From NCBI RefSeq assembly GCF_044647545.1, contig NZ_CP172818.1: a DNA stretch of 64,000 nt; one strand, 5' to 3'. Under the pieces are notes generated by a model that was not told the DNA's origin, ran no database searches, and was given only the letters and a program-made list of their open reading frames with translations. Within the stretch, counting starts at the first letter, position 1; each line of letters opens with the position of its first letter. Source of the stretch: Escherichia coli. GTDB taxonomy: Bacteria > Pseudomonadota > Gammaproteobacteria > Enterobacterales > Enterobacteriaceae. Positions 4,688 through 61,858 of this stretch are shown in pieces. A program made the translations under genes and the position numbers.

Positions 4688-5518
4688 ATGTTTGTTCCAT
4701 TTCTCATTATGTTGCGCGAAGGACTTGAAGCCGCGCTGATTGTCAGTTTGATTGCCAGCTATCTTAAGCGTACCCAGCGAGGCCGATGGATTGGTGTGAT
4801 GTGGATTGGCGTGTTGCTTGCCGCTGCGTTGTGCCTGGGCTTGGGTATCTTCATTAACGAAACCACCGGTGAATTTCCGCAAAAAGAACAGGAACTGTTT
4901 GAAGGCATCGTGGCGGTGATCGCCGTGGTGATCCTTACCTGGATGGTTTTCTGGATGCGCAAAGTGTCGCGCAACGTCAAAGTACAACTGGAGCAGGCGG
5001 TCGATAGCGCATTGCAGCGTGGAAATCATCATGGCTGGGCGCTGGTGATGATGGTTTTTTTTGCCGTTGCAAGGGAAGGGCTGGAGTCGGTCTTTTTCCT
5101 GCTGGCGGCATTTCAACAAGATGTCGGGATCTGGCCGCCGCTGGGTGCAATGCTCGGTCTTGCTACAGCCGTGGTGCTTGGCTTCCTGCTCTACTGGGGC
5201 GGTATTCGCCTCAATCTTGGTGCATTTTTTAAATGGACCAGCCTGTTTATTCTCTTCGTCGCCGCAGGGCTGGCGGCTGGTGCCATTCGCGCATTTCATG
5301 AAGCCGGATTGTGGAACCACTTTCAGGAAATCGCCTTCGATATGAGCGCGGTGCTCTCAACTCACTCGCTGTTTGGCACGCTGATGGAAGGGATTTTTGG
5401 CTATCAGGAAGCGCCGAGTGTCAGCGAAGTCGCCGTCTGGTTTATTTATCTCATCCCGGCGCTGGTGGCATTTGCTCTGCCACCACGCGCAGGGGCGACA
5501 GCGTCTCGCTCCGCGTAA
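4688..5518 (+). CDS. efeU: Ferrous iron permease EfeU (FTR1/OFeT family), apparently intact
   Basis: Continuous ORF (track 4679..5518; the ATG at 4688 gives 276 aa) containing two REGLE motifs (MLREGLEAAL and VAREGLESVF). Confidence 0.9.
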   Translation: MFVPFLIMLREGLEAALIVSLIASYLKRTQRGRWIGVMWIGVLLAAALCLGLGIFINETTGEFPQKEQELFEGIVAVIAVVILTWMVFWMRKVSRNVKVQLEQAVDSALQRGNHHGWALVMMVFFAVAREGLESVFFLLAAFQQDVGIWPPLGAMLGLATAVVLGFLLYWGGIRLNLGAFFKWTSLFILFVAAGLAAGAIRAFHEAGLWNHFQEIAFDMSAVLSTHSLFGTLMEGIFGYQEAPSVSEVAVWFIYLIPALVAFALPPRAGATASRSA

Positions 5519-8163: not shown

Positions 8164-8452
8164 CTTTCCAGTAGAAACTAATGTCACTGAAATGGTGTTT
8201 TATAGTTAAATATAAGTGAATATATTGTTGCAATGAATGCGAGATCTGTTGTACTTATTAAGTAGCAGCGGAAGTTCCCGGCAGTGATAGTCAGTCACTA
8301 TGGAGATCGCGGATGGTAACGTCCTGTTCTGGACAATGTTTTGTTAAGCAAGGCTCCACCACTCGCGGAGATTTCTCCTCCGGTAGCAACTTCGTCACTC
8401 TGTATTTTTCTCACTTCCTCTCTTTACTCGTGTTACCGACGCCGCAAACGGT

Positions 8453-9376
8453 GTGCGTAGCCGTTTTTCGGCATTTTATCCAAAAGCAAACTATGGCTTA
8501 CAAGGAAGCCAACCCTCTGATGTTCGTGCGCATAATCGCGCTGCCAACGGCGCGTGTGATGAATACAAACAACTCAAGGTGCTCTCCATGGGAAGACAAA
8601 AAGCAGTGATCAAAGCTCGTCGCGAGGCAAAACGTGTGCTGAGACGGGATTCGCGCAGCCATAAGCAGCGTGAAGAAGAATCGGTCACCTCGCTTGTGCA
8701 GATGAGCGGCGTAGAAGCCATTGGTATGGCCCGCGACAGTCGCGATACTTCGCCCATCCTCGCGCGAAATGAAGCGCAATTGCACTATCTGAAGGCTATT
8801 GAGAGTAAGCAGCTGATATTCGCCACGGGCGAAGCTGGGTGCGGAAAAACCTGGATCAGCGCAGCAAAAGCGGCAGAGGCCCTGATACATAAGGATGTCG
8901 ACAGGATTATCGTCACCCGTCCAGTTCTGCAAGCCGATGAAGATCTTGGCTTCTTACCTGGTGATATCGCAGAAAAGTTTGCTCCCTATTTTCGCCCGGT
9001 CTACGATGTGCTGGTCCGGCGCTTAGGGGCTTCCTTTATGCAGTACTGCCTGCGACCAGAAATAGGGAAGGTGGAAATTGCGCCGTTCGCCTATATGCGT
9101 GGACGTACCTTTGAAAATGCAGTCGTCATTCTTGACGAGGCGCAGAATGTGACTGCCGCGCAAATGAAAATGTTTTTAACCCGCCTCGGGGAGAACGTGA
9201 CGGTTATCGTCAACGGTGATATCACGCAATGCGATTTGCCTCGCGGCGTGTGCTCCGGATTAAGTGACGCGCTGGAACGTTTCGAAGAGGATGAAATGGT
9301 CGGGATCGTCCGATTCGGTAAAGAGGATTGCGTACGTTCGGCACTTTGCCAACGTACGCTACATGCATACAGTTAA
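8453..9376 (+). CDS. phoH: PhoH, phosphate-starvation-inducible ATP-binding protein (start uncertain; ATG at 8588 would give 262 aa)
   Basis: ORF track 307 aa; Walker A motif GEAGCGKT; C-terminal ...CQRTLHAYS; recognised as E. coli PhoH. Confidence 0.88.
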   Translation: MRSRFSAFYPKANYGLQGSQPSDVRAHNRAANGACDEYKQLKVLSMGRQKAVIKARREAKRVLRRDSRSHKQREEESVTSLVQMSGVEAIGMARDSRDTSPILARNEAQLHYLKAIESKQLIFATGEAGCGKTWISAAKAAEALIHKDVDRIIVTRPVLQADEDLGFLPGDIAEKFAPYFRPVYDVLVRRLGASFMQYCLRPEIGKVEIAPFAYMRGRTFENAVVILDEAQNVTAAQMKMFLTRLGENVTVIVNGDITQCDLPRGVCSGLSDALERFEEDEMVGIVRFGKEDCVRSALCQRTLHAYS

Positions 9377-9425: not shown

Positions 9426-9839
9426 TTATACCCGGACTAGCGTTTTTTCTGAAACCACCATTTTTATTTGTCCCTGGCTGGTGAAGTGTACGCTCATCCT
9501 GTGGCTTTTTTGTAGTTGCTGATAAAGCTCATCAGGTATTGCTAAGCTCTCTGCATATTCTCGCGGCGTATATTGGTATGCTGCATGATGCTGCTGTTTT
9601 TTAAAACGCAGCTTATTGTACAATGCCCAGACGATTAACACGACGGCATTCGCCACTGCCAGCAAAAAATAGAACTGAAGTCGGCTTCTGGCCTCGCTTT
9701 GCCAGTAATAACCCGTCAGCAGATCAATGGCGAATAAGAATATGAACAAAGCAAATAATGTCCACAAGATGGTTGTGGCAACATAATCAACCAGTAAACG
9801 TACTGGCGATTGTCGGGTCGTAATAATTAGATTGTTCAT
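9426..9839 (-). CDS. pgaD: PNAG biosynthesis protein PgaD
   Basis: ORF 137 aa, small membrane protein immediately downstream of pgaC; size and sequence match PgaD. Confidence 0.9.
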
Positions 9840-9840
9840 A

Positions 9841-11166
9841 TTAACCTCTCAGAATCCCACGATCGGGACTTACCCAACGAGCGCGTTGTTTTTTAGGCAT
9901 CAACATGACTCGTGTAAATGATACCAATGTCGTTGCCAGGCTTAGCATCCAGAAAATAACCGGGAACCAAATAATCCAGAAAAGCGATGAAGCCAGATTG
10001 TGCTCATAGCGATTCTCAATCACCAGACTGACAATAAATTGCAGTAAACATAACGTACACAATAATATTCCGGCAGTATGTGTCGCTGCGATATGTGTCA
10101 ATTCAATATTTAACGGTACACCTGCAAGTTGGACTGCGTAAATAATGAAACCGACCAGGCAGGTAAAGGCCCATATTGTCGTCAGACAGTATTCAAAAAA
10201 CAGTGGCCACATTCGAAAGTTTTCTTTGCGCCATAGCCTTGTCATATTTTTGAGGAATACTTCTGCACCGCCCTGAGCCCAGCGCAGGCGCTGTTTCCAC
10301 AGCCCTTTTAACGTTTCAGGCATTAATATCCAGCACAGCGCCCGTGGCTCGTAAAAAATCGTCCACTGATTCAACTGCAGCTTCCAGCTAATATCAATAT
10401 CTTCGGTGATCATATCGTCACTCCAGTAACCCACTTCTGCCAGGGCGCTGCGACGAAATGCGGCAATAACACCGGAAACTGTAAATACGTTTCCATAGAT
10501 ACGCTGGGTCCGCTTGATCAAACCAATAATTGAGGAATACTCGCCAACCTGAATTTTACCCACCAGGGTAGAACGTGTGCGAATACGAGGATTACCGGTT
10601 ACGGCACCCACACGCGGGTTGTACAACATCGGTTCCACAATATATGCCGCCGCATCGCGGTCTAATAACGCATCGCCATCAATGCACACCAGATATTCAC
10701 TTTTCGCCGCGGCAGCTCCGGTTTTAAGCGCAATGGCTTTCCCCTGGTTTTGCGCCAGATGAATGACCCGCAGGTGGGGAATTTGTGCAGCCATGCGATC
10801 CAGGATGGCACGGGTTTTGTCTGTTGAACCGTCATTTACGGCAATAACTTCAATGTTCTCATAACGCTGTGCTAAAGCGGCGTGTATGGTTTCCTCAACG
10901 TTTTTCTCCTCATTAAAACAGGGAATGATAATGGAGATAGACGGATTATCTTTCAACTGGGGGGCTGGTGCGTTTTCTCCCCACGGCCAGTGGCGTTCAC
11001 GATAGACCCAGAAATAGACGCCGCCAACAATCCACATAATGGACATAAAAAACGGCCAGAAGAAAACGAACCTCATCATCAGTTCACCAGAGTGAAAGTA
11101 CGCTACGCATAGGGGGATGCATAACACCAGACATAATATAAAAAACGATACGATGCGATTAATCAT
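9841..11166 (-). CDS. pgaC: Poly-beta-1,6-N-acetylglucosamine synthase PgaC (GT2 glycosyltransferase)
   Basis: ORF 441 aa; recognised as E. coli PgaC by sequence and size. Confidence 0.93.
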
Positions 11167-16198: not shown

Positions 16199-17617
16199 AT
16201 GGAAAAAGACTATTTGGGAATTAGTAGTACTGTATTAGTGAGTTTATTGTTTGGGCTTGCGTTGGTTTTGGTGAATAGTTGGTTCAATCAGCCAACCGTT
16301 GAGGAAGTTGTTCCACGATCAACCTATCTGATGGTTATGATTGCTTTATTTTTTATCGATACTGTTGCATTTATTTTTATGCAGTTGTATTTCATTTATG
16401 ACCGTAGGCAATTTTCAAACTGTATACTTAGTTTGGCTTTTCTAAGTTGTTTGATTTACTTTATTAAAACCGTCATTATCATTCAGCAAATTATTGAGGG
16501 GCGTTTGACAAGCAGTGTTGTTCAAAATGACATTGCAATTTATTATTTGTTTCGTCAGATGAGTTTGTGCGTATTAATATTTCTGGCATTGGTAAATAAA
16601 GTTAGTGAAAACACAAAACAGCGCAATTTGTTTTCCAAAAAAGTGACTTTGTGCATAACTTTGTTTTTTGTTCTTGGGGGGCCGATAGTTGCTCACATAT
16701 TTTCTAGCCATTATGAGAGCTACGATTTACACATTGCCGAGTTAACCAATGAAAATGGTCAGGTGGTTTGGAAAGCCTCATATGTTACCATAATGATTTT
16801 CATGTGGTTAACCTTGCTTTCGGTTAATCTATACTTTAATGGTTTACGCTGTGATATCTGGAACGGGGTGTCGGTGATTGCTTTTTGTGCCGTGCTGTAC
16901 AATATCTCTCTGTTATTTATGAGCAGGTATAGCGTGTCCATTTGGTATATTAGTCGCACTATTGAAGTAGTCAGTAAGTTAACCGTTTTGGTAATTTTTA
17001 TGTGCCATATATTCAGTGCGCTACGAGTAACAAAGGACATTGCACATCGCGATCCCTTAACCAATATATTTAACAGAAATTATTTTTTTAATGAACTGAC
17101 GGTTCAATCAGCATCGGCCAAAAAAACACCTTATTGCGTCATGATTATGGATATTGACCACTTCAAAAAAGTCAACGACACCTGGGGACATCCGGTTGGC
17201 GATCAAGTGATAAAGACAGTGGTGAATATCATTGGGAAAAGCATACGACCAGATGACCTTTTAGCGCGCGTTGGCGGCGAAGAGTTTGGCGTCTTGCTGA
17301 CGGAGATCGATACTGAATGTGCGAAAGCTTTAGCGGAAAGGATTCGGGAAAATGTTGAACGTTTAACTGGCGATAATCCTGAATACGCCATACCACAAAA
17401 AGTGACGATTAGTATTGGCGCTGTTGTAACGCAGAAAAATGAGTTAAACCCTAAGGAGATCTATCAACTGGCTGATAACGCACTTTACGAGGCGAAAGAG
17501 ACCGGGCGTAATAAGCCGCTGTCGCCAGTTGTCGACCTCCGCTTGGGGCTTCTCATCCCCCCGGTGTGTGCAATATACGAAAAAAAAGCCCGTACTTTCG
17601 TACGAGCTCTTCTTTAA
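16199..17617 (+). CDS. dgcT: Membrane-anchored diguanylate cyclase DgcT/YcdT (GGDEF domain, GGEEF active site); C-terminal tail runs into the serX terminator
   Basis: ORF track 16109..17617; MEKDYL... start at 16199; GGEEF motif in ...LARVGGEEFGVLL...; N-terminal multi-TM region. Confidence 0.85.
   Translation: MEKDYLGISSTVLVSLLFGLALVLVNSWFNQPTVEEVVPRSTYLMVMIALFFIDTVAFIFMQLYFIYDRRQFSNCILSLAFLSCLIYFIKTVIIIQQIIEGRLTSSVVQNDIAIYYLFRQMSLCVLIFLALVNKVSENTKQRNLFSKKVTLCITLFFVLGGPIVAHIFSSHYESYDLHIAELTNENGQVVWKASYVTIMIFMWLTLLSVNLYFNGLRCDIWNGVSVIAFCAVLYNISLLFMSRYSVSIWYISRTIEVVSKLTVLVIFMCHIFSALRVTKDIAHRDPLTNIFNRNYFFNELTVQSASAKKTPYCVMIMDIDHFKKVNDTWGHPVGDQVIKTVVNIIGKSIRPDDLLARVGGEEFGVLLTEIDTECAKALAERIRENVERLTGDNPEYAIPQKVTISIGAVVTQKNELNPKEIYQLADNALYEAKETGRNKPLSPVVDLRLGLLIPPVCAIYEKKARTFVRALL
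17585..17612 (-). terminator. Rho-independent terminator downstream of serX
   Basis: Minus strand reads gagctcgtacgaaagtacgggc followed by TTTTTTTT, immediately 3' of the tRNA; it overlaps the last codons of the ycdT ORF. Confidence 0.7.
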
Positions 17618-24503: not shown

Positions 24504-24959
24504 ATGAAACTTTTAAAAGTAGCAGCAATTGCAGCAATCGTATTCTCTGGTAGCGCTCTGGCAGGTGTTGTTCCTCAGTACGGCGGCGGCGGTAACCACG
24601 GTGGTGGCGGTAATAATAGCGGCCCAAATTCAGAGCTGAACATTTACCAGTACGGTGGCGGTAACTCTGCTCTTGCTCTGCAAGCTGACACCCGTAACTC
24701 TGATCTGACCATTACCCAGCACGGCGGCGGTAACGGCGCAGATGTTGGCCAAGGTTCTGATGACAGCTCAATCGATCTGACTCAGCGTGGTTTCGGCAAC
24801 AGCGCTACTCTTGATCAGTGGAATGGTAAAGATTCTACTATGACTGTTAAACAGTTCGGTGGCGGTAACGGTGCTGCTGTTGACCAGACTGCATCTAACT
24901 CCAGCGTTAACGTCACTCAGGTTGGCTTTGGTAACAACGCGACCGCTCATCAGTACTAA
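24504..24959 (+). CDS. csgA: Curli major subunit CsgA
   Basis: ORF 151 aa; signal peptide plus five imperfect repeats (SELNIYQYGGGNSAL..., TQHGGGNGADVGQ..., etc.). Confidence 0.95.
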   Translation: MKLLKVAAIAAIVFSGSALAGVVPQYGGGGNHGGGGNNSGPNSELNIYQYGGGNSALALQADTRNSDLTITQHGGGNGADVGQGSDDSSIDLTQRGFGNSATLDQWNGKDSTMTVKQFGGGNGAAVDQTASNSSVNVTQVGFGNNATAHQY

Positions 24960-25876: not shown

Positions 25877-26410
25877 ATGAAAACGCGTATTCATGTTGTG
25901 CAGGGTGATATTACCAAACTGGCCGTTGATGTGATTGTGAATGCGGCTAATCCGTCATTAATGGGAGGCGGCGGCGTCGATGGGGCCATTCATCGCGCAG
26001 CGGGTCCGGCGCTGCTGGATGCCTGTTTAAAAGTCAGGCAACAGCAGGGCGATTGCCCTACGGGGCATGCCGTTATTACGCTTGCAGGCGATCTTCCCGC
26101 TAAAGCCGTAGTGCACACCGTCGGGCCAGTCTGGCGTGGTGGTGAACAAAACGAAGACCAGCTTTTGCAGGATGCCTATCTCAATAGCCTACGACTGGTG
26201 GCGGCAAACAGCTATACGTCAGTGGCTTTTCCTGCAATCAGTACTGGGGTTTATGGTTACCCTCGTGCGGCAGCGGCTGAAATCGCAGTAAAAACCGTTT
26301 CAGAATTTATTACCCGTCACGCTTTACCCGAACAGGTATACTTTGTCTGTTATGATGAAGAAAACGCCTACCTCTACGAAAGACTCCTTACCCAACAAGG
26401 AGATGAATGA
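25877..26410 (+). CDS. ymdB: Macrodomain O-acetyl-ADP-ribose deacetylase YmdB
   Basis: ORF 177 aa; macro-domain sequence ([23 protein letters not shown]). Confidence 0.93.
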
Positions 26411-27833
26411 TTTGCCCCGGCTGGCGAGCGCGGTGCTGCCACTGTGTTCGCAACATCCCGGTCAGTGTGGTCTTTTCCCTCTGGAGAAAAGTCTGGATGC
26501 GTTTGCCGCCCGGTATCGTCTGGCCGAAATGGCAGAGCATACGCTGGATGTTCAGTATTACATCTGGCAGGACGATATGTCGGGTCGGTTACTGTTTTCC
26601 GCCCTGTTAGCCGCAGCAAAGCGTGGCGTTCGCGTCCGTTTGTTGCTGGACGACAACAATACACCCGGACTTGACGACATTTTACGCTTGCTTGACAGTC
26701 ATCCCCGCATTGAAGTCCGGCTTTTTAATCCTTTCTCGTTTCGCTTGCTACGTCCGCTTGGTTATATCACCGACTTTTCCCGTCTCAATCGCCGTATGCA
26801 CAATAAAAGTTTCACTGTCGATGGCGTGGTGACGCTGGTAGGGGGGCGAAATATTGGTGATGCCTATTTTGGTGCAGGGGAAGAGCCACTTTTTTCGGAT
26901 TTAGATGTCATGGCAATAGGACCAGTTGTAGAGGACGTTGCCGATGATTTCGCCCGCTACTGGTATTGCAAATCGGTTTCACCCCTACAGCAGGTGCTGG
27001 ATGTCCCGGAAGGTGAAATGGCGGATCGCATCGAGTTACCCGCCTCCTGGCATAACGATGCTATGACGCATCGTTACTTACGCAAAATGGAATCCAGTCC
27101 GTTTATAAATCATCTGGTTGATGGAACATTGCCGCTTATCTGGGCGAAAACACGTTTATTAAGTGATGATCCGGCGAAAGGGGAGGGCAAGGCAAAACGG
27201 CATTCACTGTTACCGCAGCGCCTGTTCGATATCATGGGCTCACCCAGTGAACGCATCGATATTATCTCTGCCTATTTTGTACCGACACGCGCAGGTGTGG
27301 CGCAACTCTTACGGATGGTGAGAAAAGGGGTAAAGATTGCGATCCTAACCAATTCTCTTGCCGCTAACGATGTTGCTGTCGTCCATGCCGGATACGCACG
27401 CTGGCGCAAAAAATTGCTCCGCTACGGCGTGGAATTATATGAACTCAAGCCGACGCGTGAACAAAGTAGTACGTTACACGATCGCGGCATAACCGGTAAT
27501 TCCGGTGCCAGCCTGCATGCTAAAACCTTTAGCATCGATGGTAAAACGGTGTTTATCGGCTCTTTCAATTTCGATCCGCGTTCGACATTGCTCAATACTG
27601 AAATGGGGTTCGTGATAGAGAGCGAAACGCTGGCACAGTTAATTGATAAACGCTTTATTCAGAGCCAGTATGATGCGGCCTGGCAGCTCCGTCTGGACAG
27701 GTGGGGACGGATCAACTGGGTTGATCGTCATGCAAAGAAAGAGATTATTCTCAAAAAAGAACCCGCCACCAGTTTCTGGAAGCGGGTTATGGTCAGACTG
27801 GCATCGATATTGCCCGTGGAATGGTTATTATAA
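26403..27833 (+). CDS. clsC: Cardiolipin synthase C (PLD superfamily, two HKD motifs); start uncertain
   Basis: ORF track 26343..27833; HKD motifs HNKSFTVDG and HAKTFSIDG; the ATG at 26403 overlaps the ymdB stop (ATGAATGA). Confidence 0.88.
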
Positions 27834-29280: not shown

Positions 29281-33463
<4,183 letters not shown>

Positions 33464-33635: not shown

Positions 33636-33863
33636 ATGCGTTTAATTGTGGTGAGCATCATGGTGACCTTGCTGAGTGGCTGTGGCAGCATTATTAGTCG
33701 CACTATACCGGGGCAGGGGCATGGCAACCAATATTATCCCGGTGTGCAATGGGATGTGCGTGACTCCGCCTGGCGTTATGTCACGATCCTTGATCTGCCA
33801 TTCTCCCTGGTTTTTGATACTTTACTGCTGCCGATCGACATTCATCATGGCCCGTATGAGTAA
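33636..33863 (+). CDS. yceK: Lipoprotein YceK
   Basis: ORF 75 aa; lipobox LLSGCGS. Confidence 0.88.
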   Translation: MRLIVVSIMVTLLSGCGSIISRTIPGQGHGNQYYPGVQWDVRDSAWRYVTILDLPFSLVFDTLLLPIDIHHGPYE

Positions 33864-34238
33864 TTAACGTTCATCCCACTCATCAGCTGCTGCGCGTCCT
33901 TCCTCAGTATCCAGCGGTGGCTCAAGCTGAAATTCCCCCTCATCCCATTCATGTAATGTATTCTCTTCCTGCCACTCCTGGCGGATCTCTATCTCATCAT
34001 AGTCGCCATCAAAGACACTTTGCGCGGCTTCACCGCTAAGCATAGGTAAACATTCACCTTCTTCCCCTTCGTCGGCAAAAAACTCAACTTGCCACATGAT
34101 GTCGCCGTCCTGCAAAACGTATTTTTGGGCATTGAACTGTTGCACATTCGCATCTTCGGCGTCGATGCCGGGGTTGTCTGCAAGAAATTCTTCGCGTGCA
34201 GCGTCAATGGCTTCTTCAAGCGTTGCGTACATGGTCAT
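33864..34238 (-). CDS. msyB: Acidic protein MsyB
   Basis: ORF 125 aa, highly acidic (…DEGEEGE…); recognised as MsyB. Confidence 0.9.
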   Translation of the reverse strand: MTMYATLEEAIDAAREEFLADNPGIDAEDANVQQFNAQKYVLQDGDIMWQVEFFADEGEEGECLPMLSGEAAQSVFDGDYDEIEIRQEWQEENTLHEWDEGEFQLEPPLDTEEGRAAADEWDER

Positions 34239-45621: not shown

Positions 45622-46864
<1,243 letters not shown>

Positions 46865-46865
46865 A

Positions 46866-47789
46866 GTGAAAAAATTACGTATCGGCGTAGTGGGGTTAGG
46901 CGGCATCGCGCAAAAAGCGTGGTTACCGGTGCTGGCGGCAGCGTCTGACTGGACGTTACAAGGTGCGTGGTCGCCTACGCGCGCCAAAGCCCTGCCAATT
47001 TGTGACAGCTGGCGCATTCCTTATGCTGATTCGTTATCCAGCCTTGCCGCCAGTTGCGATGCGGTTTTTGTGCATTCCAGCACCGCCAGCCACTTTGACG
47101 TGGTCAGTACGTTACTCAATGCGGGGGTACATGTCTGTGTCGATAAACCGCTGGCAGAAAATCTGCGCGATGCTGAACGGCTGGTGGAACTGGCGGCGCG
47201 GAAAAAATTGACGTTGATGGTCGGTTTTAACCGTCGTTTCGCACCACTCTACGGTGAGTTAAAAACGCAACTCGCCACCGCAGCCTCGCTAAGAATGGAT
47301 AAACATCGTAGCAATAGCGTCGGGCCACACGATCTTTATTTCACGTTGCTGGATGATTATCTGCATGTGGTGGATACCGCGCTGTGGTTGTCGGGCGGTA
47401 AAGCCTCTCTGGATGGCGGTACGCTACTGACTAATGACGCTGGCGAAATGCTGTTTGCCGAGCACCATTTTTCGGCCGGTCCTTTGCAGATCACCACCTG
47501 TATGCATCGCCGTGCCGGAAGTCAGCGTGAAACCGTGCAGGCCGTGACTGACGGTGCGCTCATCGACATTACGGATATGCGCGAATGGCGTGAGGAGCGC
47601 GGGCAGGGCGTAGTGCATAAACCGATTCCTGGTTGGCAGAGTACGCTTGAGCAACGTGGATTTGTCGGCTGTGCGCGGCACTTCATTGAATGCGTGCAAA
47701 ATCAGACAGTTCCGCAAACCGCCGGCGAACAGGCAGTGCTGGCGCAACGTATCGTTGACAAGATCTGGCGCGATGCGATGAGTGAATAA
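46866..47789 (+). CDS. yceM: Gfo/Idh/MocA-family oxidoreductase YceM/MviM
   Basis: Track ORF 46833..47789; likely GTG start at 46866 (VKKLRIGVVGLGGIAQKAW, Rossmann fold) gives 307 aa. Confidence 0.88.
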   Translation: MKKLRIGVVGLGGIAQKAWLPVLAAASDWTLQGAWSPTRAKALPICDSWRIPYADSLSSLAASCDAVFVHSSTASHFDVVSTLLNAGVHVCVDKPLAENLRDAERLVELAARKKLTLMVGFNRRFAPLYGELKTQLATAASLRMDKHRSNSVGPHDLYFTLLDDYLHVVDTALWLSGGKASLDGGTLLTNDAGEMLFAEHHFSAGPLQITTCMHRRAGSQRETVQAVTDGALIDITDMREWREERGQGVVHKPIPGWQSTLEQRGFVGCARHFIECVQNQTVPQTAGEQAVLAQRIVDKIWRDAMSE

Positions 47790-56295: not shown

Positions 56296-57393
56296 GTGAT
56301 TAAATTTCTCTCTGCATTAATTCTTCTACTGGTTACGACGGCGGTTCAGGCTGAGCGTATTCGCGATCTCACCAGTGTTCAGGGGGTAAGGCAAAACTCA
56401 CTGATTGGCTATGGCCTGGTGGTGGGGCTTGATGGTACAGGTGACCAGACAACTCAGACGCCGTTTACCACACAAACGCTTAATAACATGCTCTCACAGC
56501 TGGGAATTACCGTTCCGACGGGCACCAATATGCAGCTAAAAAACGTCGCTGCGGTAATGGTGACGGCGTCACTTCCACCGTTTGGACGCCAGGGGCAAAC
56601 CATTGACGTGGTGGTTTCTTCCATGGGAAATGCCAAAAGTCTGCGTGGCGGTACGTTATTGATGACACCGCTTAAGGGCGTTGACAGTCAGGTGTATGCG
56701 CTGGCACAGGGCAATATTCTGGTTGGCGGCGCAGGGGCCTCCGCTGGCGGTAGCAGTGTTCAGGTGAACCAACTGAACGGTGGACGGATCACCAATGGTG
56801 CGGTTATTGAACGTGAATTGCCCAGCCAGTTTGGCGTCGGGAATGCCCTTAATTTGCAACTTAACGACGAAGATTTCAGTATGGCGCAGCAAATCGCTGA
56901 CACCATCAACCGCGTGCGTGGATATGGCAGCGCCACCGCGTTAGATGCGCGGACTATTCAGGTGCGCGTACCGAGTGGCAACAGTTCCCAGGTCCGTTTC
57001 CTTGCCGATATCCAGAATATGCAGGTTAATGTTACCCCGCAGGACGCTAAAGTAGTGATTAACTCGCGCACTGGTTCGGTGGTGATGAATCGCGAAGTGA
57101 CCCTCGACAGCTGCGCGGTAGCGCAGGGGAATCTCTCAGTAACAGTTAATCGTCAGGCCAATGTCAGCCAGCCAGATACACCGTTTGGTGGCGGGCAGAC
57201 CGTGGTAACGCCACAAACGCAGATCGATTTACGCCAGAGCGGCGGTTCGCTGCAAAGCGTACGTTCCAGCGCCAGCCTCAATAACGTGGTGCGTGCGCTC
57301 AATGCGCTGGGCGCTACGCCGATGGATCTGATGTCCATACTGCAATCAATGCAAAGTGCGGGATGTCTGCGGGCAAAACTGGAAATCATCTGA
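56296..57393 (+). CDS. flgI: Flagellar P-ring protein FlgI
   Basis: Track ORF 56293..57393; likely GTG start at 56296 gives 365 aa (…[18 protein letters not shown] signal peptide). Confidence 0.93.
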
Positions 57394-58334
57394 TGATCAG
57401 CGACAGCAAACTACTGGCAAGTGCGGCCTGGGATGCACAATCGCTCAACGAACTTAAGGCGAAAGCGGGCGAAGATCCGGCGGCAAATATCCGTCCGGTG
57501 GCCCGCCAGGTGGAAGGGATGTTCGTGCAGATGATGTTGAAAAGCATGCGCGACGCTTTACCAAAAGATGGCCTGTTCAGCAGCGAGCACACTCGCCTGT
57601 ATACCAGTATGTATGACCAGCAGATTGCCCAACAGATGACGGCGGGCAAAGGTCTGGGGCTGGCAGAGATGATGGTTAAACAGATGACGCCAGAACAACC
57701 ATTGCCAGAGGAGTCCACGCCAGCAGCACCGATGAAATTCCCGCTCGAAACCGTGGTGCGTTATCAAAATCAGACGCTTTCGCAGCTGGTGCAAAAGGCC
57801 GTACCACGTAACTACGATGATTCGCTGCCGGGTGACAGTAAAGCATTCCTCGCGCAACTCTCGTTGCCCGCCCAACTGGCAAGCCAGCAAAGCGGTGTGC
57901 CACATCATTTGATCCTCGCTCAGGCGGCGCTGGAATCTGGCTGGGGACAACGGCAAATCCGCCGTGAAAACGGCGAGCCGAGCTATAACCTGTTTGGCGT
58001 CAAAGCCTCTGGCAACTGGAAAGGGCCAGTCACTGAAATCACCACGACTGAATATGAAAATGGCGAAGCGAAGAAAGTAAAAGCGAAGTTTCGGGTCTAC
58101 AGCTCGTATCTGGAAGCATTGTCGGATTACGTTGGGCTGTTAACGCGTAACCCGCGCTACGCCGCCGTGACGACCGCCGCGAGTGCGGAGCAGGGGGCGC
58201 AGGCCCTACAGGACGCGGGCTATGCCACCGATCCTCACTATGCCCGCAAACTCACCAGCATGATTCAGCAGATGAAATCGATAAGCGACAAGGTGAGCAA
58301 AACCTACAGCATGAACATTGATAATCTGTTCTGA
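57393..58334 (+). CDS. flgJ: Flagellar rod-assembly protein / peptidoglycan hydrolase FlgJ
   Basis: Track ORF 57363..58334; the [14 protein letters not shown] start overlaps the flgI stop by 1 nt and gives 313 aa. Confidence 0.93.
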   Translation: MISDSKLLASAAWDAQSLNELKAKAGEDPAANIRPVARQVEGMFVQMMLKSMRDALPKDGLFSSEHTRLYTSMYDQQIAQQMTAGKGLGLAEMMVKQMTPEQPLPEESTPAAPMKFPLETVVRYQNQTLSQLVQKAVPRNYDDSLPGDSKAFLAQLSLPAQLASQQSGVPHHLILAQAALESGWGQRQIRRENGEPSYNLFGVKASGNWKGPVTEITTTEYENGEAKKVKAKFRVYSSYLEALSDYVGLLTRNPRYAAVTTAASAEQGAQALQDAGYATDPHYARKLTSMIQQMKSISDKVSKTYSMNIDNLF

Positions 58335-61090: not shown

Positions 61091-61800
<710 letters not shown>

Positions 61801-61858
61801 TGATAATTATACAGCACATGTAACGCTAATGTCATTACAGCAAAGATGCTACCCCTGA

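Follow-up and report, generated by a model that had tools for sequence, protein, structure and literature searches.

Five tight gene junctions in a segment of the Escherichia coli chromosome that runs from putP to rne (64,000 nt; hereafter the window) are real, and they are very probably ordinary junctions of co-transcribed genes, at four of which the downstream gene starts as annotated, with partial translational coupling as the likeliest consequence and three candidate starts for the fifth downstream gene, clsC. All five pairs, as well as pgaC/pgaD, consist of adjacent protein-coding genes that lie on the same strand with nothing intervening (Table 1). For flgJ, pgaC, opgH, yceM and pgaD, the start codon falls within -8 to +6 nt of the upstream stop, with spacings of -1, -8, -8, +1 and +1, respectively. 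An earlier note on this DNA had described a one-base overlap between flgI and flgJ, 8-nt overlaps in pgaB/pgaC and opgG/opgH, and a GTG-initiated yceM within 2 nt of yceH. Reading the sequence bore this out, with TGATG occupying exactly positions 57391-57395, where the note had placed it, the two 8-nt overlaps reading ATGATTAA and ATGAATAA, and a single nucleotide separating yceH from yceM. These four joins are of the textbook E. coli operon type and are already known; the literature also names the operons pgaABCD and ymdAB-clsC.

The junction of pgaC with pgaD is a sixth tight one, which the earlier reading had missed. Its spacing is +1, -4 or +2 in other genera, and PgaC-PgaD fusion proteins occur (P0237, P0238). 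Counting all co-directional junctions of the window, 11 of 47 (23%) lie within -8 to +6 nt, where a uniform distribution of spacings up to 200 nt would predict ~3.4 (P=4e-4). This share equals that of the whole E. coli genome, in which 24% of co-directional pairs are spaced this tightly (PMC10666635).

Table 1. Positions of the tight junctions and of the candidate clsC starts in the window.
Feature	Span	Strand	Elements	Remarks
flgI/flgJ	57391..57395	+	flgI stop TGA 57391-57393; flgJ ATG 57393-57395	TGATG, 1-nt overlap
opgG/opgH	30920..30927	+	opgH ATG 30920-30922; opgG stop TAA 30925-30927	8-nt overlap ATGAATAA
pgaB/pgaC	11159..11166	-	pgaB stop TAA 11161-11159; pgaC ATG 11166-11164	8-nt overlap ATGATTAA
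pgaC/pgaD	9837..9843	-	pgaC stop TAA 9843-9841; 1-nt spacer; pgaD ATG 9839-9837	tight junction
yceH/yceM	46862..46868	+	yceH stop TAA 46862-46864; 1-nt spacer; yceM GTG 46866-46868	Shine-Dalgarno GGGAG 46855-46859
ymdB/clsC, ATG 26403	26403..26410	+	ATGAATGA: in-frame clsC ATG 26403-26405; ymdB stop TGA 26408-26410	candidate start of the earlier note, 476 aa
ymdB/clsC, TTG 26412	26412..26414	+	TTG, 1 nt past ymdB stop	candidate, curated K-12 start, 473 aa; Shine-Dalgarno AAGGAG 26397-26402
ymdB/clsC, ATG 26352/26355	26352..26357	+	ATGATG inside ymdB	candidate, PGAP start, 493 aa, 59-nt overlap

Start codons of flgJ, pgaC, opgH and yceM

The open reading frames listed by program for this DNA begin too far upstream, as had been suspected, namely at ATG 57363 for flgJ, GTG 30890 for opgH, TTG 46833 for yceM and TTG 26343 for clsC. 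The curated K-12 record and the PGAP annotation of a near-identical strain place the starts of flgJ, pgaC, opgH and yceM identically, at the codons given in Table 1, and for these genes as well as for pgaD the two annotations and INRI-seq agree on the site of initiation. INRI-seq is an in-vitro mapping of initiation sites (Table S2) in which the RNAs carry only 30 nt upstream of the start. It detected the starts of pgaC, opgH and yceM in all five replicates and that of flgJ weakly, in four of five; the pgaD start was detected as well. The long form of flgJ was rejected. Its ATG 57363 is replaced by TTG in Salmonella and Citrobacter and is without an INRI-seq site, its 10-residue extension is unconserved as protein, and the TIGR02541 profile aligns only from residue 12 of the shorter protein. 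For YceM, family profiles align from residues 3-4 of the GTG-initiated protein, and the Shine-Dalgarno sequence of the gene pairs with -7.3 kcal/mol at a spacing of 5.

The geometry of these four junctions is kept in related genomes, which does not hold for ymdB/clsC. The -1 overlap of flgI and flgJ recurs, with the sequence TGATG or TAATG, in loci of Citrobacter and of the Salmonella type, and Salmonella-type loci keep the +1 geometry of yceH/yceM together with the GTG and the Shine-Dalgarno sequence. At opgG/opgH, Cedecea, Kosakonia and Citrobacter have exactly the same ATGAATAA junction. Enterobacter retains the 8-nt overlap of pgaB and pgaC, there in the form ATGAATAA, and Serratia and Pseudomonas have an ATGA with a 4-nt overlap.

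Ribosome profiling or N-terminal proteomics had been proposed as a check of the chosen starts. In published data, INRI-seq supports the four starts, and an N-terminal peptide listed in TRAINSPOTTER Table S1 supports OpgH only. In-vivo Ribo-RET gave zero signal at every start examined here, so confirmation of starts in vivo is limited to the OpgH peptide, and none of the junction genes appears in the supplements on Salmonella riboproteogenomics. In sum, the earlier proposal that overlaps help to fix start codons holds for flgJ, pgaC, opgH and yceM, by annotation and by INRI-seq. At clsC, where it pointed to ATG 26403, it failed or at most lacks proof. Choosing a start by its overlap with the upstream stop thus beats the longest-ORF rule at four junctions, where it confirms the reference annotation; caution is warranted, as the same heuristic chose the least supported start of clsC.

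Candidate starts of clsC and the effect of ymdB

The claim that ymdB and clsC share ATGAATGA is correct insofar as the string is present and its ATG lies in the clsC frame; as a clsC start, this ATG has the least support among the candidates. The true start may be TTG 26412, ATG 26352 (or 26355) or, least likely, ATG 26403. Relative to the ymdB stop, the K-12 start is spaced by +1 and the ATG of the earlier note by -8, both within the -8 to +6 band, and the PGAP start, at -59, lies outside it. Public databases contain three N-termini of ClsC, giving proteins of 473, 476 and 493 aa, of which the 476-aa form is a minority annotation (72 contigs vs at least 1000 for each other form). In the sampled E. 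coli genomes, all candidate starts are invariant at this junction and provide no discrimination, and NCBIfam holds no ClsC-specific model. Between genera, the ymdB/clsC geometry spans -77 to over +100 nt.

Initiation at ATG 26403 would make the two genes overlap by the 8 nt ATGAATGA and would yield a protein of 476 aa, made by ribosomes that re-initiate after ending at the ymdB stop. This codon is of the best start-codon type and lies 5 nt upstream of that stop. Every E. coli checked has it, and so does E. albertii, whose codon corresponding to the TTG is TTA; the resulting form is annotated in some GenBank records. However, the AAGGAG Shine-Dalgarno sequence abuts the ATG with a spacing of 0, and INRI-seq lists no alternative site at -9, though the oligo includes that position. 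Outside Escherichia, the ATG is not conserved, being ACG in C. sedlakii and Intestinirhabdus, and other genera are without a start there. As neither K-12 RefSeq nor PGAP uses it either, we regard ATG 26403 as an improbable start.

The same AAGGAG is ideally placed for TTG 26412, pairing with -8.5 kcal/mol at a spacing of 8-9 nt, and it could drive initiation there while leaving clsC dependent on the translation of ymdB, either because a hairpin masks it or because ribosomes are handed over directly. In Citrobacter, the positionally equivalent codon is an ATG, which in C. werkmanii is the sole possible start. Against this, TTG is a rare start codon, the E. albertii locus has TTA and a Shine-Dalgarno sequence weakened to AAGGCG, and INRI-seq yielded 0 signal in 5/5 replicates, although the method does pick up other TTG starts, such as that of rpsT. 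A masked site would be consistent with the lack of any independent initiation in vitro, given how abundant the template was (316 CPM). The predicted masking hairpin, in which CUCCUU 26386-26391 pairs with AAGGAG 26397-26402, appears in the minimum-free-energy fold and amounts to -6.2 kcal/mol alone. Its fold z-score, however, is only -0.67 and the pairing is not kept outside Escherichia; the hairpin was rejected as an explanation in its own right and is retained only as a weak part of this scenario. Taken together, a start at TTG 26412 is possible, if somewhat doubtful.

A third candidate, the PGAP model, starts clsC at ATG 26352 (or 26355), 59 nt inside ymdB, and is possible too, with a slight edge over TTG 26412. 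PGAP uses ATG 26352 in five of five E. coli genomes checked, and of the 24 loci in which clsC adjoins or overlaps ymdB, 23 have an ATG at the equivalent position (-60 to -66). The exception is C. werkmanii, whose stop codons in the extension frame mean that the N-terminal extension is dispensable there. In Leclercia, Lelliottia and one Enterobacter genome, clsC has no in-frame start codon other than those at -54 to -75; the rest of this group has a few nearer GTG or TTG codons that lack Shine-Dalgarno pairing, so that only the starts at -54 to -75 pair. Independent gene callers likewise arrive at ClsC proteins of 497 and 498 aa in Kosakonia and Cedecea, and in Erwiniaceae and more distant homologues, N-terminal sequence precedes the TRLG motif. 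Because the INRI-seq oligo for clsC does not include ATG 26352, its negative result is not counted against this start. On the other hand, ATG 26352 is not preceded by a good Shine-Dalgarno sequence, the pairing being -3.8 kcal/mol at a distance of 13 nt, its conservation may merely reflect that of YmdB codons (C-Y/F-D-E), and it is rejected in the curated K-12 record.

The way in which ymdB increases the amount of ClsC is a stated question of the cardiolipin field, on which the clsC start and its dependence on ymdB both bear, and the choice of start also affects the design of clsC expression constructs. Possibly, the boost of ClsC by ymdB is a translational effect in cis, not an activity of the YmdB protein. 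In one version, clsC would initiate at ATG 26352/26355 inside ymdB, so that clones carrying clsC only would be without the native start. In a second version, initiation would occur at the ymdB stop, at TTG 26412 or ATG 26403, only while ribosomes translate ymdB. An effect in cis is supported by INRI-seq, which recorded no initiation at the two proximal clsC starts, and by the many sister genera in which the only credible clsC starts lie inside ymdB. It also fits the title of a 2024 paper, which states that the ymdB product is not needed for ClsC specificity.

Such an effect would have precedents among systems in which coupling works by RNA unfolding, namely coat and lysis of phage MS2 (-50 nt) and rpmI-rplT of E. 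coli (PMC12548453). The same mechanism would apply if clsC started ~59 nt within ymdB, or if a Shine-Dalgarno sequence at the stop of ymdB were masked. Unlike in these systems, our fold and accessibility analyses found no significant or conserved inhibitory structure at ymdB/clsC.

Translational coupling and comparison with known junctions

Coupling of the pairs described here is plausible, a judgement made from geometry only. Where a downstream start overlaps or abuts the upstream stop, partial translational coupling would be the likeliest functional outcome. The ribosome that ends the upstream gene may re-initiate locally (termination-reinitiation) or may open nearby RNA, and initiation coupled in this way would add to a modest independent initiation. 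Where the coding sequences overlap, there is no room for a terminator plus a promoter between the genes. As to independent initiation, INRI-seq shows that the starts of pgaC, pgaD, opgH, yceM and flgJ are used on fragments without the upstream gene, reaching 5-33 CPM at flgJ, pgaC and opgH despite weak or absent Shine-Dalgarno sequences; clsC alone is silent. The four downstream starts thus initiate in vitro without upstream translation, and coupling cannot be obligatory for them. Shine-Dalgarno pairing is weak or absent (-1.9 to -3.3 kcal/mol) in the three overlapping downstream genes, flgJ, pgaC and opgH, and strong in two abutting ones. In predicted accessibility of the initiation region, compared across 58 window genes and the three clsC candidates, the coupled candidates were not distinct from the others.

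It is also conceivable, though rather unlikely in our view, that the overlaps have no function and result incidentally from the compactness of operons and from the ease with which stops arise near starts, all downstream genes initiating independently. That pgaC, opgH, yceM and flgJ initiate in vitro on fragments from which the upstream gene is absent fits this possibility, as does the drift of the pgaB/pgaC overlap from -8 to -4 between genera, and a J Bacteriol review credits the abundance of -4 overlaps partly to evolutionary ease (PMC12548453). Experiments on native E. coli -4 pairs speak to both sides: bioBF was uncoupled, so an overlap need not imply coupling, whereas the other four of the five tested pairs were coupled (PMC6728339), and coupling collapses within ~20 nt of added spacing (PMC6728339, PMC10666635). 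A lack of function is further at odds with the persistence of tight geometry over long evolutionary distances, even where the stop has changed from TGATG to TAATG, and with good Shine-Dalgarno sequences being missing from the overlapping downstream genes. Partial coupling remains our preferred reading.

The reporter-tested -4 pairs are close counterparts of the window pairs, being from the same organism and of the same kind of junction, and the part played by the Shine-Dalgarno sequence differs from one pair to the next. They differ in being known from reporter fusions and premature stops, whereas the window pairs are known from sequence. In E. coli, a spacing of -4 is the commonest, followed by -1 and -8 (PMC10666635; PMC12548453); by the K-12 annotation, the window contains no pair of this commonest class (ATGA). 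An 8-nt overlap is the shortest of its reading phase because canonical start and stop codons do not allow overlaps of 2 or 5 nt. Set beside the spatially coupled ORFs of the literature (Huber et al. 2019, 2023; Brown & Wade 2025), flgI/flgJ belongs to the -1 class (TGATG), pgaB/pgaC and opgG/opgH belong to the -8 class (NTGNNTAA), and yceH/yceM, pgaC/pgaD and, in its K-12 form, ymdB/clsC have a spacing of +1. All of these window junctions lie in the -8 to +6 band, which is enriched across the genome and is said to permit termination-reinitiation, and structurally they do not differ from that known group.

Tight junctions and the starts of flgJ, pgaC, opgH and yceM

Reading of the sequence bore out the tight junctions that an earlier, sequence-only note had described, namely a one-base overlap at flgI/flgJ, 8-nt overlaps at pgaB/pgaC and opgG/opgH, a yceM GTG within 2 nt of yceH and a short string shared by ymdB and clsC. 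The ORF track was, as claimed, over-extended at flgJ, opgH, yceM and clsC. One further tight junction, pgaC/pgaD, was added to the set.

Stop and start codons at the tight junctions and candidate clsC starts (window positions)
Junction	Strand	Upstream stop	Downstream start	Geometry	ORF-track start	INRI-seq signal at annotated start (replicates)
flgI/flgJ	+	TGA 57391-57393	ATG 57393-57395	1-nt overlap, TGATG	ATG 57363	6-10 CPM (4/5)
pgaB/pgaC	-	TAA 11161-11159	ATG 11166-11164	8-nt overlap, ATGATTAA		14-26 CPM (5/5)
pgaC/pgaD	-	TAA	ATG	1-nt spacer, 9843-9837		6-12 CPM (5/5)
opgG/opgH		TAA 30925-30927	ATG 30920-30922	8-nt overlap, ATGAATAA	GTG 30890	24-33 CPM (5/5)
yceH/yceM		TAA 46862-46864	GTG 46866-46868	1-nt spacer	TTG 46833	33-41 CPM (5/5)
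ymdB/clsC		TGA in ATGAATGA	ATG 26403, clsC frame	ATGAATGA, 26403-26410	TTG 26343	
ymdB/clsC, curated K-12			TTG 26412 (473 aa)	1-nt gap		
ymdB/clsC, PGAP			ATG 26352 (493 aa)	59-nt overlap		

The proposal that such overlaps fix the start codons held for flgJ, pgaC, opgH and yceM, where the same start is given by K-12 RefSeq and PGAP and is active in INRI-seq, but not for clsC, whose proposed ATG 26403 is the start in neither K-12 nor PGAP. INRI-seq applies retapamulin ribosome profiling to synthetic RNAs in a purified system, every K-12 gene being represented by 51 codons preceded by 30 nt of upstream sequence (PMC9825163). Within the pgaC, opgH, yceM, pgaD and flgJ oligos, no alternative sites were listed at upstream in-frame codons. 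The in-vivo counterpart, Ribo-RET, gave a signal of 0 at these same five starts, presumably because of low expression. Protein-level features agree with the annotated starts: an OpgH N-terminal peptide is found at this position in the TRAINSPOTTER N-terminomics table, the Rossmann motif MKKLRIGVVGLGG of YceM read from the GTG coincides with position 1 of the profiles of related families, and the TIGR02541 profile sets in at residue 12 of short-form FlgJ.

The geometry is also retained in other genera. Salmonella-type and Citrobacter loci keep the 1-nt overlap of flgI/flgJ, even with a TGA to TAA change of the stop, and Salmonella-type loci keep the 1-nt spacer, the GTG and a GGGAG Shine-Dalgarno at yceH/yceM. 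The opgG/opgH overlap is the same in Cedecea, Kosakonia and Citrobacter, and the spacing of pgaB/pgaC is -8 in Enterobacter and -4 (ATGA) in Serratia and one Pseudomonas. The long form of flgJ was rejected: its ATG is TTG in Salmonella-type loci and Citrobacter, and the 10-residue extension is unconserved as protein. At the flgI start, GTG 56296, an in-frame GTG (56293) lies immediately 5', identically in K-12; Shine-Dalgarno spacing (5 vs 2 nt) favours the second, annotated GTG. PgaC and PgaD are fused in some organisms into a single 591-aa protein with the PgaD domain PF13994 appended (P0237, P0238), which fits the tight junction and the known partnership of both proteins.

Competing starts of clsC

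Three starts compete at clsC. ATG 26352 is the PGAP start in all five PGAP E. coli genomes checked, one of them a K-12 derivative, whereas ATG 26403 (476 aa) is a minority annotation, with 72 contigs against at least 1000 for each other form. The Shine-Dalgarno AAGGAG (26397-26402) has a spacing of 0 to ATG 26403 and of 8-9 nt to TTG 26412 (pairing -8.5 kcal/mol). INRI-seq yielded 0 reads at TTG 26412 in 5/5 replicates, with the oligo abundant in the pool (316 CPM), and listed no site at ATG 26403; the oligo spans both codons, and ATG 26352 lies beyond it.

We compared 80 ClsC loci, 24 of which have clsC adjoining or overlapping ymdB. An ATG equivalent to 26352 is found in 23 of these 24; the exception is C. 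werkmanii, where clsC can start only at the K-12 TTG position because of upstream in-frame stops. Leclercia, Lelliottia and one Enterobacter genome have in-frame clsC starts only at -54 to -75, and in Pseudescherichia, Kosakonia, Superficieibacter, Cedecea, Buttiauxella and Siccibacter nearer GTG or TTG codons are few, with next to no Shine-Dalgarno pairing. For Kosakonia and Cedecea, independent gene callers predict a ClsC of 497-498 aa and a 59-68-nt overlap with the macrodomain gene. The K-12 TTG position is ATG in Citrobacter and TTA in E. albertii, which has a weakened Shine-Dalgarno and retains the ATGs at -9 and -60. The position of ATG 26403 is a start codon within Escherichia only. 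Taken together, we tentatively favour ATG 26352/26355, at somewhat below an even chance; TTG 26412 is nearly as likely, ATG 26403 is improbable, and mixed use takes up the remainder.

Most homologues outside Enterobacterales (L044-L082) carry a ~45-residue N-terminal extension before the conserved TRLG motif, a lipoprotein-type signal with a hydrophobic stretch ending in L-x-G-C, which enterobacterial ClsC lacks. By lineage, clsC starts at about -60 inside ymdB, at 0, or at -39 to -48. From these sequences we infer that enterobacterial clsC may have lost its original N-terminus and that its start position would now depend on lineage, which would account for the ambiguity in E. coli.

Translational coupling

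Coupling by termination-reinitiation is plausible at these junctions, judging by their conserved tight geometry, by Shine-Dalgarno sequences that are weak or absent in all three overlapping downstream genes, and by tested E. coli pairs: four of five native -4 pairs were coupled via termination-reinitiation, and coupling was lost within ~20 nt of extra spacing (PMC6728339, PMC10666635). That such coupling should be obligatory is countered by the uncoupled bioBF pair (PMC6728339), by the in-vitro activity of four downstream starts on isolated INRI-seq fragments and by computed accessibility, in which the initiation regions were indistinguishable from others in the window. A candidate hairpin over the clsC Shine-Dalgarno, CUCCUU/AAGGAG (-6.2 kcal/mol), is part of the minimum-free-energy fold; it is insignificant (z=-0.67) and unconserved.

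The effect of ymdB on ClsC might be translational and act in cis, either through a start within ymdB or through initiation that needs ymdB translation, which is compatible with all findings. The ymdB product is reportedly not needed for ClsC specificity, as the title of a 2024 paper has it, and the cis-translation question may be partly answered already.

Window annotation and frequency of tight junctions

The 64-kb window covers the E. coli chromosome from putP through rne, and annotation was carried onto it from NC_000913.3 (curated K-12) and ECONIH1 (PGAP). Identity is 99.8% to strains such as ECONIH1 and 97-99% per gene to K-12 MG1655. The most divergent gene is csgA (24504-24959), at 92.5% identity to K-12 against 96-100% elsewhere in the window. 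efeU (4688-5518), a frameshifted pseudogene in K-12, is intact (276 aa), and dgcT (16199-17617) is full length (472 aa); IS3D, ymdE and ycdU, 3' of dgcT in K-12, are missing. The K-12 long phoH start (354 aa) maps to 8313 (gene 8313-9376) and is probably over-extended; the first ~120 nt are divergent in the window strain, with indels and many in-frame stops, and PGAP gives 262 aa in near-identical ECONIH1. The convergent yceK (+) and msyB (-) abut without an intergenic base (33861-33866; yceK stop ends 33863, msyB stop begins 33864). Between flgL and the rne 3' end, 61240-61810 holds ~570 nt of low complexity with long T/A/G/C homopolymer runs, where K-12 carries just a short spacer and the small RNA flgO, and ECONIH1 a GNAT toxin/DUF1778 antitoxin pair. 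The window sequence matches the 3' part of the ECONIH1 GNAT gene at 93% identity and then becomes degenerate; the segment resembles an artefact of assembly or base calling, or else a corrupted toxin-antitoxin copy.

Spacings of -8 to +6 nt occur at 11 of 47 co-directional junctions in the window (23%) and of -8 to +1 at six, compared with ~3.4 (P=4e-4) and ~2.2 (P=0.02) expected from uniform spacing up to 200 nt. The 8-nt overlap is the minimum in its phase, because ATG/GTG/TTG and TAA/TAG/TGA permit no 2-nt or 5-nt overlap. The earlier observation of tight junctions is confirmed and its interpretation partly supported, with four of five starts right and coupling plausible by inference; the genome is well annotated and the junctions are already known. 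Their clustering is real but normal for E. coli: by the count of Huber et al. (2023), 24% of co-directional pairs (707 of 2,987) fall in the -8 to +6 band, with -4 the commonest spacing, followed by -1 and -8 (PMC10666635), and Brown & Wade (2025) agree on this pattern (PMC12548453).
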